A DNA stretch of 61,444 nt from Acidimicrobiia bacterium (GTDB lineage: Bacteria; Actinomycetota; Acidimicrobiia; Spongiisociales; JAHEDJ01): assembly GCA_029210695.1 (NCBI GenBank), contig JARGFH010000002.1, forward strand, positions 62,001 through 123,444. The letters run 5' to 3'. The notes beneath the pieces were generated by a model. The model was not told the DNA's origin. It was given only the letters and a program-made list of their open reading frames with translations, and did not search any database. The position numbers and the translations under genes are program-made. Position 1 is the stretch's first letter, and every line of letters begins with the position of its first letter. This document shows, one piece after another, positions 46,778 through 49,648 of the stretch.

Positions 46778-47380
46778 TCAGATCTCGTCGAGAAGCTTCT
46801 GCTTCTTGGCGGCGAACTCCTCATCCGTCAGGACACCGTCGCGATGGAGGCGAGCGAGTGACTCGAGTTGCCCCGCGGCTCCCCCCTGGTTGCCCCCTTC
46901 GAGCGCAACCGTTCGCTTCTCTCTCAGTTGGTAGATCTGCGATTGGACATCCTCAGGGCGGGGAATATCGGTGAAACGGCTCTGCCCCTGCTCACCGGCG
47001 GACTCGATCAAGAGATCGCCCGAATGCACCAGCCGCTCCAGCACCGACTGCGAGAACGCAACGTCGTTGATGACCTCGAGCGGAATCTCCTTGCCTCGAC
47101 GAGCCAGTACCCCCGACCGAACGATGAGGCGTTCGTTGGTGACGATGTATCGGGTGAACCACCAATCGAGGTAGCGCGGAACGGCGGTGATGAGCCAGAC
47201 GAGGGCAACGACGGCCAGCGAGATCCACATGGCGCCTTCGTCTAGGAGCGCGGTGACGGCAACCAGCGCGGCGATGGCGACGATCGTGATGGCGGTGGGA
47301 ACCATGATTCTCTGCCAATGCGGGCGGAACTCGAGTTGGACGGCTTCGCCGGGACTGAGGAGACGTTCTGGGTAGGGCAT
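46778..47380 (-). CDS. Membrane PH (bPH_2) domain protein with SHOCT tail
   Basis: RPHW, two TM, YIVTNERLI, GDLLIESAGE; LHRDGVLTDEEF..KK..LL; leaderless TACCAT-N6-ATG. Confidence 0.85.
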   Translation of the reverse strand: MPYPERLLSPGEAVQLEFRPHWQRIMVPTAITIVAIAALVAVTALLDEGAMWISLAVVALVWLITAVPRYLDWWFTRYIVTNERLIVRSGVLARRGKEIPLEVINDVAFSQSVLERLVHSGDLLIESAGEQGQSRFTDIPRPEDVQSQIYQLREKRTVALEGGNQGGAAGQLESLARLHRDGVLTDEEFAAKKQKLLDEI

Positions 47381-47432
47381 GAGCTTATGGTACGCGAGTC
47401 ACGGCTCGCGCGAGTCGCCGGTTGCATCTCAA

Positions 47433-47841
47433 GACGCGGAAAACCCCGAGAAAGCTCCGACCGAAGTCGTTACCCTCTCGGGGTTCCCGAACCCCGCTCC
47501 GGTTCGAGTCCCGAAGGACAAGATCCGAGGCGAGTCCCGAAGTAGCGTTTCCACTACCCCGGACCCACAGCCTTTCAGCCCCGGGCTCGTTCTCCACCAA
47601 TCCCGAAAGACTGGTATCGAACACGGCCCCTCGTTTCCAAGAGACCTGGTATCCCCCGAAGGAGAAACCAACACTCCGGCCGGACGCCCGATCGACCCGA
47701 AGGTCTCCCGGGACGGACAACCCTTACGAGCTGCCTCTCCCTTTCAGGAGCCACCGAAGTGGTTGTCCCATCCAAAGCCGCTCAGTTTCCCAAATGGCCC
47801 CGTCCGGGACAATGCCGTCTCAGAGTTTCCTCCGAACCGGC
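47433..47841 (-). ncRNA. Putative ~409-nt tetraloop-rich structured RNA, copy A
   Basis: 13 consecutive hairpins capped by GAAA (6), GUAA (1) and UUCG (6), with G-U pairs that work only on the minus strand; own promoter; long 3' hairpin. Confidence 0.8.
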
Positions 47842-47848
47842 AGGGAGG

Positions 47849-47923
47849 AACATATCGGCTACCCCCACCCAACGCAAGGCAGAAACCAACCCAGATTTCG
47901 CGACCCAAACATAAAAGTCGCGA
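47849..47923 (-). promoter_or_regulatory. Promoter of RNA A with upstream TCGCGA pair
   Basis: TTGCGT(47877-72)-N17-TATGTT(47854-49); TCGCGA at 47898-903 and 47918-923. Confidence 0.72.
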
Positions 47924-48008
47924 GTTACGAGTCGCGGGTCGCCAGTTACGGGTCGCGAGTTCGCGAGTCCACGAGTCGCGGGTCCCGAGTTACGAGTCGC
48001 TAGTCGCG
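47916..48008. repeat. Degenerate heptamer tract (AGTCGCG/AGTTACG), ~13 units
   Basis: Spacer between RNA genes; only 3 units at 48504-48524. Confidence 0.85.
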
Positions 48009-48020
48009 GGTACGCCCCAG

Positions 48021-48429
48021 GACGCGGAAAACCCCGAGAAAGCTCCGACCGAAGTCGTTACCCTCTCGGGGTTCCCGAACCCCGCTCCGGTTCGAGTCCC
48101 GAAGGACAAGATCCGAGGCGAGTCCCGAAGTAGCGTTTCCACTACCCCGGACCCACAGCCTTTCAGCCCCGGGCTCGTTCTCCACCAATCCCGAAAGACT
48201 GGTATCGAACACGGCCCCTCGTTTCCAAGAGACCTGGTATCCCCCGAAGGAGAAACCAACACTCCGGCCGGACGCCCGATCGACCCGAAGGTCTCCCGGG
48301 ACGGACAACCCTTACGAGCTGCCTCTCCCTTTCAGGAGCCACCGAAGTGGTTGTCCCATCCAAAGCCGCTCAGTTTCCCAAATGGCCCCGTCCGGGACAA
48401 TGCCGTCTCAGAGTTTCCTCCGAACCGGC
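48021..48429 (-). ncRNA. Putative tetraloop-rich structured RNA, copy B (identical to A)
   Basis: Identical sequence; promoter TTGCGT(48465-60)-N17-TATGTT(48442-37). Confidence 0.8.
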
Positions 48430-48536
48430 AGGGAGGAACATATCGGCTACCCCCACCCAACGCAAGGCAGAAACCAACCCAGATTTCGCGACCCAAACAT
48501 AAAAGTCGCGAGTTACGAGTCGCGGATACGCCCCAG

Positions 48537-48721
48537 GACGCGGAAAACCCCGAGAAAGCTCCGACCGAAGTCGTTACCCTCTCGGGGTTCCCGATCCCGG
48601 GAACTCCTTGCCCGAAAGCTCGGTCTTCCCGAAGACTCCCTCGACCGGCGTTTCCACCGATTCCGGTCCGAAGAGCCCTCTCGACCTCTTCAGTCCGCTT
48701 CGCAGTTTCCTGCGATGCGGT
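48537..48721 (-). ncRNA. Putative ~185-nt short family member, RNA C
   Basis: 5 hairpins (GAAA, GAGA, GAAA, UUCG, UUCG); last 58 nt identical to A/B; 5' hairpin analogous to that of A/B. Confidence 0.75.
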
Positions 48722-48728
48722 AAAGATG

Positions 48729-48803
48729 AAGGTAAGCGCTCCTGCGCCGTTCGTCAAGGCACAGAGCTCACAAATTTTCGCGACCTGTTCATAGTTTTCG
48801 CGA
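48729..48803 (-). promoter_or_regulatory. Promoter of RNA C with upstream TCGCGA pair
   Basis: TTGACG(48757-52)-N17-TACCTT(48734-29); TCGCGA at 48778-83 and 48798-803, same offsets as in A/B. Confidence 0.72.
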
Positions 48804-48847: not shown

Positions 48848-49648
48848 ATGCCGTTGGAAACGCTGTCTCCAAGTCGGGCGAGCGACTACAAGCAATGCCC
48901 GCAACTCTTCAAGTTCCGGGCAATAGATCGCATACCCGAACCGGTCACGATCTACCAGGCCCGGGGAACCACCGCGCACCTCGCTCTGCAGGAGCTGTAC
49001 GACCTCTCACCGGAGGAGCGCACACCGGAAGCCCTCTACGACCTCTTCCGCAAGGCGTGGACGGAGCTGCGCACGACAGAAGAGTATGCCGACCTGTTTA
49101 GTTCTGATGACGAGGAGCGCATGTGGGGTGTTGAGAGCCTTGCACTCCTGGCCAACTACTTCACCGTCGAGGACCCCGTTGAGGTGAGTCCTCGCGATCG
49201 CGAGCTGGACATGCTCGAGGATTTGGGGGGCATCACCATTCGCGGCATCCTCGACCGAATCGACGAGCTTCCCGGCGGCGAACTGGTCATCACCGATTAC
49301 AAGACCGGCAAGGCACCGCCCGAACGATATGCACTCCCGGCGTTCTTCGCCCTCAAGATCTATGCGCTCTTGATCAGGCACAAGACGGGCCGGACTCCCG
49401 TTGAACTCCGCCTGTTGTACCTCAACGGACCGACCCTCTATCGCCTGCCCGTCGGCGACGCGCATCTGAATGGTATGGACCGCCAGCTCCGGGCACTGTG
49501 GGCGGCGATCGACAAGGCCATCGCCGGCGATAACTTCCCGCCGCGCCCGGGGCAACTGTGCAACTGGTGTTCCTACCAGGATCGGTGCCCCGCCTTCGCC
49601 GACAACGATGCGGAAGGCGATGACCAGACCTTGGCGAGCACCGCATGA
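48848..49648 (+). CDS. RecB-family PD-(D/E)XK nuclease with four-Cys (Fe-S) motif
   Basis: LSPSRASDYKQCP, GTTAH..L, RGILDRID, ITDYKTGK, LCNWCSYQDRCP. Confidence 0.88.
   Translation: MPLETLSPSRASDYKQCPQLFKFRAIDRIPEPVTIYQARGTTAHLALQELYDLSPEERTPEALYDLFRKAWTELRTTEEYADLFSSDDEERMWGVESLALLANYFTVEDPVEVSPRDRELDMLEDLGGITIRGILDRIDELPGGELVITDYKTGKAPPERYALPAFFALKIYALLIRHKTGRTPVELRLLYLNGPTLYRLPVGDAHLNGMDRQLRALWAAIDKAIAGDNFPPRPGQLCNWCSYQDRCPAFADNDAEGDDQTLASTA

Follow-up and report, generated by a model that had tools for sequence, protein, structure and literature searches.

A tandem array of structured RNA genes in an Acidimicrobiia genome belongs to an undescribed family with fixed ends and a middle of variable length

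Results

The window analysed here, a stretch of 61,444 nt from an Acidimicrobiia bacterium (GCA_029210695.1, contig JARGFH010000002.1), carries on its minus strand three stand-alone genes in tandem, each for a stable non-coding RNA and all from a single undescribed family. With its ends as predicted, unit U1 (47434-47841, ~408 nt) consists of a 5' GNRA hairpin, 11 body hairpins and a 3' terminal helix, and U2 (48022-48429) is an identical copy. A sequence-only reading of this DNA had described two identical copies, and both are real: 505 nt, promoter included, match letter for letter at an offset of 588 nt (47433-47937 = 48021-48525). That reading overlooked the third unit, U3 (48722-48538, ~185 nt; fold z = -5.9), a short paralog that has a promoter of its own, differs from U1 and U2 over a body of ~130 nt, ends in the same terminal helix and is retained in genomes G002 and G004. 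Every unit of the window is thus led by its own promoter and closed by one common long helix, and the spacer between U2 and U1 (47925-48017, no strand assigned) reads as short degenerate tandem repeats (family D3). Domain searches identify the downstream neighbour (46778-47380, minus strand) as a membrane protein with bPH_2 and SHOCT domains and the divergent upstream neighbour (48848-49648, plus strand) as a stand-alone PD-(D/E)XK (RecB-like) nuclease, which is followed from 50038 by an AdnAB-like helicase-nuclease pair. Both neighbours serve as syntenic markers: the bPH_2 gene adjoins the RNA in 60 of 140 loci and the RecB-like gene in 64, with one or the other beside a unit in 90.

A sigma-A-type promoter precedes U1 (47849-47877, minus strand), with TTGCGT at -35 (47877-47872), a 17-nt spacer and TATGTT at -10 (47854-47849). 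U2 has an exact copy (48437-48465), and the U3 promoter region (48729-48802) has TTGACG (48757-48752) and TACCTT (48734-48729). A consensus promoter scanner found nothing at U1 at its threshold, but the -35/N17/-10 element that had been read from the sequence is present and its position is conserved across the family. The earlier description lacked the upstream part of these promoters, namely a CGCGAAA box that at U1 lies 18 nt before the -35 element (47902-47896) and is accompanied by a second, degenerate box 20 nt upstream of it (both within 47896-47922; exact copy at U2, 48484-48510). U3 has two full boxes (48782-48776 and 48802-48796), the best-scoring pair of the genome. Across the family, CGCGAAA stands 18 nt before the -35 element in 160 of 167 promoters, and a second box follows 20-21 nt further up in 147 of them; the promoter pattern used in the search required one box at 14-24 nt and not this sharp spacing.

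Folding supports the proposal that selection acts on a structured minus-strand RNA. The minus strand from 47841 to 47434 folds with z = -7.7, a stability reached by 0 of 100 dinucleotide shuffles, compared with z = -2.0 and 3 of 100 shuffles for the plus strand of the same interval, and tetraloops are packed more closely in U1 and U2 than anywhere else in the 3.9-Mb genome (10-11 per 300 nt versus at most 5). The sequence-only reading counted 13 hairpins per copy, all capped by GNRA or UUCG loops, and a stem scan returns the same 13. The minimum-energy fold of U1 has 12, again with GNRA or UUCG loops throughout, and pairs the CCAC-UUCG-GUGG segment otherwise; because the relative G006 keeps the local CCAC-UUCG-GUGG hairpin and breaks the alternative pairs, we take 13 to be correct.

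The locus might instead be a DNA-level repeat or the coding region of the 471-aa plus-strand ORF (47379-48794), which is open throughout and had been raised as a possible real product. This ORF, however, has no Pfam or NCBIfam match, its GC content by codon position is flat (0.63/0.56/0.62 versus 0.64-0.70/0.41-0.51/0.73-0.77 in four neighbours), and 1- and 2-nt indels in same-genus relatives break its frame. For the repeat, the genome does carry REP-like palindromes ending in CGCGAAAA, but the folding at the locus is strand-asymmetric, unlike that of a DNA palindrome, and its three strong copies lie at one syntenic place and are not dispersed. An assignment as REP or MITE was likewise rejected, as we found three strong copies at one locus in place of many dispersed strand-symmetric ones. 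The coding or DNA-repeat reading is therefore largely refuted, and we consider it most improbable. As a separate observation, the REP-like element of G000, found in ~25 places (e.g. C100:22155-22188, C110:9069-9102 and C88:21714-21747), is an inverted repeat of ~50 nt whose CGCGAAAA ends face outward at a distance of 33 nt and match the word of the promoter box.

BLAST located the terminal helix in 43 of 61 genomes, and among 80 rows listed, of at least 138, the named records carrying the helix are mostly Acidimicrobiia metagenome-assembled genomes. A covariance model of the helix (R1) matched 38 of 39 genomes of the same order, mostly with two to four matches each, and revealed clear units in three of five BLAST-negative genomes (one of the three, G010, unpublished); among other genomes of the class it gave weak matches in 8 of 111. 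The promoter pattern lay within reach in 170 of 226 distinct helix contexts, which yielded 165 distinct units; the other 56 were set aside as cut loci or for an unmatched promoter pattern. The typical genome has one short and one long paralog in tandem. The family is thus near-universal in the order, usually with two or more unlike paralogs. Divergent promoters drive back-to-back paralogs at four loci (L013, L093, L135 and L151).

A wider model (R2; 31 rows, one from G010) extended the family to 12 of 40 genomes of a sister order and 6 of 12 genomes of another Actinomycetota class. In the loci it found, a TTGAC-type promoter precedes a folded body that is followed by the same helix and tail; three of these loci (L222, L327 and L329) keep the gene neighbours, with the bPH_2 gene adjoining the RNA also in the sister-order locus L329. 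A homolog (L330) is likewise present in the complete genome G071. A metagenome scan added 117 distinct sister-type units, with a promoter 131-457 nt upstream of the end in 58 of the 64 that had enough flank. Homologs of the RecB-like nuclease occur in 56 of 61 sister-order genomes, and a synteny walk through 30 of these 56 loci (two from the unpublished G356 and G374) met no clear unit. In the Ms1-holding, Actinomycetes-type class, 40 genomes gave two weak matches, both plain terminators, with 137 of thousands of candidates scored per genome. There were 0 matches among 50,697 phage records, and the 11 pattern matches in viral contigs had neither promoter nor body. The non-actinobacterial L126 proved to be a chance match within coding DNA. 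L288:1501-1590 and L350:1501-1589 encode promoter-led RNAs of ~90-110 nt with a similar helix around another apical domain; they are possibly distant members or other unannotated RNAs and were left out of the member count.

The 165 units range from 59 to 836 nt, so that the earlier description as a stable, structured non-coding RNA of ~409 nt holds in kind, whereas the notion of a single RNA does not, several paralogs of unlike length being present per genome. In 161 of 163 units the predicted fold beats all six of its own shuffles; GNRA or UNCG-like loops make up 78% of 1290 predicted loops versus 4% in shuffles, 71% of bases are paired, 2x2 internal loops are mostly purine tandems, and the body is almost without single-stranded stretches, the longest unpaired run having a median of 5 nt. 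Unit length tracks the number of hairpins (r = 0.97; 36 nt per hairpin, 3-22 hairpins), and an alignment of five same-genus sequences shows whole hairpins added by local duplication as well as 11 pairs changed on both sides. In the body, structure is kept rather than sequence, and hairpins are duplicated or lost whole. Whole units have also been duplicated recently in G000, G004, L104, L108 and L229.

The two ends are fixed. The 5' hairpin H1 (in U1 47814-47841, minus strand, with a GAAA loop and a 2x2 internal loop) is the first hairpin family-wide. The 3' terminal helix H4, located in U1 at 47434-47488 (minus strand) and in the other units at 48022-48076 and 48538-48592, has a 7-bp core, CCCCGAG (47483-47477) paired with CUCGGGG (47450-47444), a UUCG cap and a CGCGU tail that is predicted mostly to pair back into the helix. 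When the end hairpins of 46 short units were compared, changes on both sides were seen at 14 of the 26 pairs, including 4 of the 5 pairs of H1 (107 cells, a figure reached by 0 of 500 shuffles; this shuffle count overstates significance as kin are not independent). The search for compensatory changes among homologues, suggested in the sequence-only reading, thus found them in body and end hairpins alike. The core is near-invariant and showed no variation in these 46 units, an invariance partly built in by the choice of many units with a pattern containing the core; model-found homologs show single or compensated changes only. Their covariation, together with a 5' hairpin that stays fixed, shows that the bodies are under selection of their own.

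No catalogued RNA accounts for these units. Rfam 15 gave no match in the window or in 37 homologous loci (20 + 17; E up to 1-5) apart from a flanking tRNA, in line with the proposed novelty, and model and location tests also bear out that the RNA is not RNase P RNA, tmRNA, SRP RNA, 6S or Ms1. The genome's copies of RNase P RNA, SRP RNA and tmRNA lie elsewhere (contigs C22, C98 and C97, respectively). The 6S model (RF00013) found nothing in this genome or in any of 121 genomes of the class and detected 6S in 56 of 151 genomes of the phylum Actinomycetota, in many families of other classes; to our knowledge, 6S is often said to be missing from this phylum. A 6S RNA is a rod of ~180 nt with paired ends and a central bubble, whereas the units here are predicted to be abutting local hairpins. 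The Ms1 model (RF02566), a narrow one that matches 3 of 121 genomes of the phylum, had no match in this genome, and neither visual comparison nor an R1 scan of three Ms1 sequences revealed any likeness. Ms1 is a long hairpin with a central bubble, as described in passages of PMC4191392, and the units lack the bubble. Ms1 also lies behind a HAD-IB hydrolase gene, whereas here the HAD ortholog is on another contig and the RNA sits beside the bPH_2 and RecB-like genes; there was no room for Ms1 behind the marker HAD gene in 9 of 9 relatives examined, and in this genome the contig ends ~170 nt after that gene, which limits the check there. On model, structure and synteny together we rejected Ms1.

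CoRP, a 516-nt RNA unlike 6S or Ms1 according to passages of PMC11077062, was compared by locus: it sits between tRNA-Gln and tRNA-Glu genes, a pair that here lies on contig C30 without this RNA. The units resemble 6S, Ms1 and CoRP as stand-alone intergenic genes with a sigma-A-type promoter, 160-500 nt, high pairing and a locus conserved across a large taxon, and resemble Ms1 further in that one hairpin stands at the 5' end and a long one, interrupted by a small internal loop, at the 3' end. They differ from all three in that they have no bubble, ends not paired with each other, other gene neighbours, several unlike paralogs and a range of 59-836 nt, and from 6S and Ms1 also in giving no sequence or model match. 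Like GOLLD, ROOL, OLE and raiA, the RNAs are large, structured and GNRA-containing (OLE and raiA also adjoin conserved genes), but neither the length nor the order of the body is conserved, no pseudoknot or kissing-loop candidates were seen, the genes are chromosomal with no promoter-and-body copy in phages, and the Rfam models of these four families gave no match. Those families have a conserved multi-domain structure around a core of near-constant size, and GOLLD, ROOL and OLE form oligomers of RNA alone. The analogy to GOLLD and ROOL offered in the sequence-only reading is not supported in its strict form; a fixed nanocage is unlikely given a body that varies in both length and order.

A bacterial Y RNA was rejected, as its partner Ro60 (TROVE) was found in one of five genomes and not in this one, and sarcin-ricin mimics and 11-nt receptor motifs had 0 matches in 163 units. 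In the literature searched, mostly outside subscription journals and represented by parts of PMC9130861, PMC11077062, PMC10861870 and bioRxiv 2026.07.10.737749 among others, no such RNA is described; the main text of PMC9130861 names no Acidimicrobiia and that of PMC12008989 no ncRNA. By sequence and architecture, with CoRP compared by locus, we regard the RNA class as new.

Parts of the stretch are contained in 20 sequencing runs from nine studies, 19 of them recorded as RNA. Four runs, one from each of four studies and chosen for containing the stretch, were aligned to it and gave 20 contigs, the listed pieces of which fall on the three units; such contigs do not reveal strand or level, and DNA can be present in RNA libraries. 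The contigs span 47494-47830 of U1 and 48073-48415 of U2, which reads cannot separate from U1, and U3 is covered by one contig of 136 nt without differences (48577-48712). A near-exact contig of 305 nt has one difference, and longer variants with extra hairpins also occur. In runs X1 and X5, contigs stop at 47829-47830, 48415 and 48712, 10-14 nt inside the predicted starts, and two of these ends run into letters that we take to be adapter. Among 31 contig differences examined (40 of 50 listed), 20 keep a pair, 7 fall at unpaired sites and 4 break a pair singly, two of the last forming one compensating couple. In these four studies no contig covers the flanking genes or the terminal helix (stops at 47494-47507 and 48073-48080 equivalents or earlier); snap-back loss during library making can explain the gap at the helix. 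The central claim of the sequence-only reading, a structured non-coding RNA with selection on the minus-strand RNA, is supported by the covariation, the lack of an Rfam match, the contigs from RNA runs and the failure of the 471-aa ORF.

Outside the units, the promoter box pair is rare. The exact pair occurs 12 times in five whole genomes (control, 0): 8 times at RNA units, 3 times in the rpmH-dnaA region upstream of dnaA and once before another gene. It lies 142-151 nt before the dnaA -35 element in four genomes. A matrix scan of this genome gave 7 matches, of which the top four are the three units and the rpmH-dnaA region, compared with 4 matches in the reversed genome at the same low threshold; the rRNA promoter of this genome lacks the pair. 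The intergenic pair of G000 is at C107:27175-27204, and the same region of G020, G030, G034 and G163 has one as well. We rejected CGCGAAA as the DnaA box of the order, since the dnaA-dnaN region keeps ordinary TGTGGA/TCCACA sites and DnaA has an ordinary helix-turn-helix in 5 of 5 genomes, and also pairing of the 3' tail with the promoter box, since the tail is predicted to pair mostly into the helix and is kept where the boxes differ. Sister-type units have TG(G/T)GGA boxes at 21-nt steps (-74, -53 and -32 from the -35 element), with a density of 1.83 per 150 nt versus 0.12 elsewhere; by their letters these boxes resemble DnaA boxes, and the CGCGAAA pair was absent from the five sister dnaA regions examined.

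Discussion

Altogether, our results support a model whereby the units are almost certainly genes of a non-coding RNA family, and we think it probable that this family works through a protein ligand. Full local folding protects untranslated RNA from Rho and RNases, and the chain of tetraloop hairpins would shield these RNAs from Rho and single-strand RNases. The near lack of single strand would leave no seed for base-pairing with mRNAs, and it is because of this that we regard protein binding as the most likely mode. A candidate seed exists in 24 short units (e.g. L028, L031 and L091), where a third hairpin carries a conserved C/U-rich loop in place of a tetraloop, the sole such single-stranded element in the family, and 6C- or cuckoo-type RNAs carry a C/U-rich loop. 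Base-pairing small RNAs acting on mRNAs are nevertheless very unlikely: U1, U2 and U3 lack this loop, the median longest unpaired run is short, and the genome contains no complement longer than 17-20 nt elsewhere, with E-values at chance level.

The sequence-fixed 3' helix is best understood either as a handle for a protein or as a receptor for GNRA loops. As a handle, the near-invariant helix and tail would be bound by the protein and the body would add bulk or avidity. As a receptor, the minor groove of its C-G-rich pairs would dock the GNRA loops of the same or another molecule, and such self-association would either fold the RNA compactly or build a multivalent network or condensate with a valency set by hairpin number. 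The preferred receptors of GNRA loops are CC:GG and CU:AG, both of which lie within the 7-bp core, so that docking would account for a helix of unvarying sequence. Passages of PMC2275092 describe GNRA loops docking on two Watson-Crick pairs of a helix. The order of the loops is suggestive as well, the first being GNRA in 136 of 163 units and the last UNCG in 148, with the middle ones mixed, and sister-type units have the same end bias (39/58 and 49/58). We nonetheless consider self-association rather unlikely, as a third of the loops are of the non-docking UNCG type, the CCUAAG of an 11-nt receptor occurs 0 times in 163 units, and covariation between the H1 loop and H4 is unconvincing (best 3 of 500 shuffles among seven tests, with kin not independent). 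Moreover, GOLLD and ROOL cages depend on conserved bridges and kissing loops, according to passages of bioRxiv 2024.12.08.627333, and the body here is plastic.

The terminal helix could also be a processing or termination signal, for example the site of a double-strand RNase, or itself the active small RNA, with the body a separate stable product or a carrier. The helix has 18-20 bp and an apical stem without a free U tract, and it is more alike among paralogs with unrelated bodies within a genome than between genomes (0.81 versus 0.75; identical in this genome). The first unit of L158, at 59 nt, has a promoter that leads directly into the terminal helix without a body. Against this, the bodies bear the marks of their own selection described above, and likeness within a genome also follows from descent or gene conversion; we judge this possibility quite unlikely. 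Protein binding remains our preferred reading, and the question becomes which protein.

One answer is a small protein, distinct from polymerase, that binds RNA or the nucleoid and is titrated by a sponge with one site per hairpin, in which paralog number and length tune capacity by the logic of CsrB and RsmZ applied to another protein. Like CsrB, CsrC, RsmY and RsmZ, the family has several paralogs of unlike length, many hairpins (3-22 repeated ones per unit) and one common upstream box, and both tandem hairpin duplication and the recent duplication of whole units suit a tunable sponge. CsrA itself was detected in 5 of 61 genomes, this one not among them, and a CsrB-type sponge was rejected; in our loop census the loops are GNRA or UNCG, unlike the GGA-bearing single strands of CsrB and RsmZ. 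A sponge for another protein is unlikely in our view, as no sequence motif recurs apart from generic tetraloops and tandem purine mismatches, and the fixed 3' helix is left unexplained.

The likeliest single ligand is RNA polymerase, which we put forward tentatively. Passages of PMC11077062 propose that each species has one abundant polymerase-associated RNA. Polymerase is our first candidate because 6S is undetected in the class, which also leaves no room for Ms1 at its marker gene, and because of this one-RNA-per-species proposal; the silence of the Rfam Ms1 model is weak evidence, as that model is narrow. Acidimicrobiia are common in sediments and soils, and with 6S found in 0 of 121 genomes the proposed polymerase-holding RNA would be missing there, for which the family is a concrete candidate. 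A polymerase held by these RNAs would make them a fourth kind beside 6S, Ms1 and CoRP, and their working may be a variant of that of polymerase-holding RNAs. Of the established ones, 6S binds the sigma-A holoenzyme and templates pRNA, and Ms1 binds the polymerase core. Several observations speak against this ligand. A central bubble defines 6S, and the units have no promoter-like central bubble; Ms1, too, needs its central bubble for full binding (passages of PMC4191392). For a mimic of one binding site, a seven-fold spread in length and the presence of several unlike paralogs in each genome are odd. In addition, genomes G205, G247, G273, G299 and G311 of family f47, in another class, carry 6S above the cut-off together with a homolog of this RNA, which counts against a simple replacement of 6S.

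We speculate that these elements could be joined in a class-wide, replication-coupled "accordion" RNA. Switched by a factor also sited upstream of dnaA, it would use its GNRA loops and fixed helix to form a multivalent network of tunable size, a store of RNA polymerase for cells that are dormant or grow slowly; this joint reading is doubtful as a whole. If true, it would provide a natural counterpart of designed tetraloop/receptor RNA assemblies as well as a fourth kind of polymerase-holding RNA. Whatever the ligand, an RNA that almost all genomes of an order retain, and whose ends stay fixed while the part between them gains or loses entire hairpins, has an architecture unlike that of catalogued large RNAs, and if the family is abundant, its RNAs are among the unannotated reads of sediment metatranscriptomes.

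The spacing of the boxes suggests that a protein binds at intervals of two helical turns and activates the promoters; the type of site at the unit promoters seems, in either group, also to occur near dnaA. The units and the rpmH-dnaA region have the box pair in common, which points to an unnamed regulator whose regulon is very small and which would tie the RNA to replication control; through it, synthesis of the RNA might be linked to a switch between replication and rest. A single box also precedes a sigma-A-type promoter at C126:83202 (minus strand) of G000, where it stands before an unannotated ORF of ~260 aa and is accompanied by an overlapping site that we take to be LexA-like.
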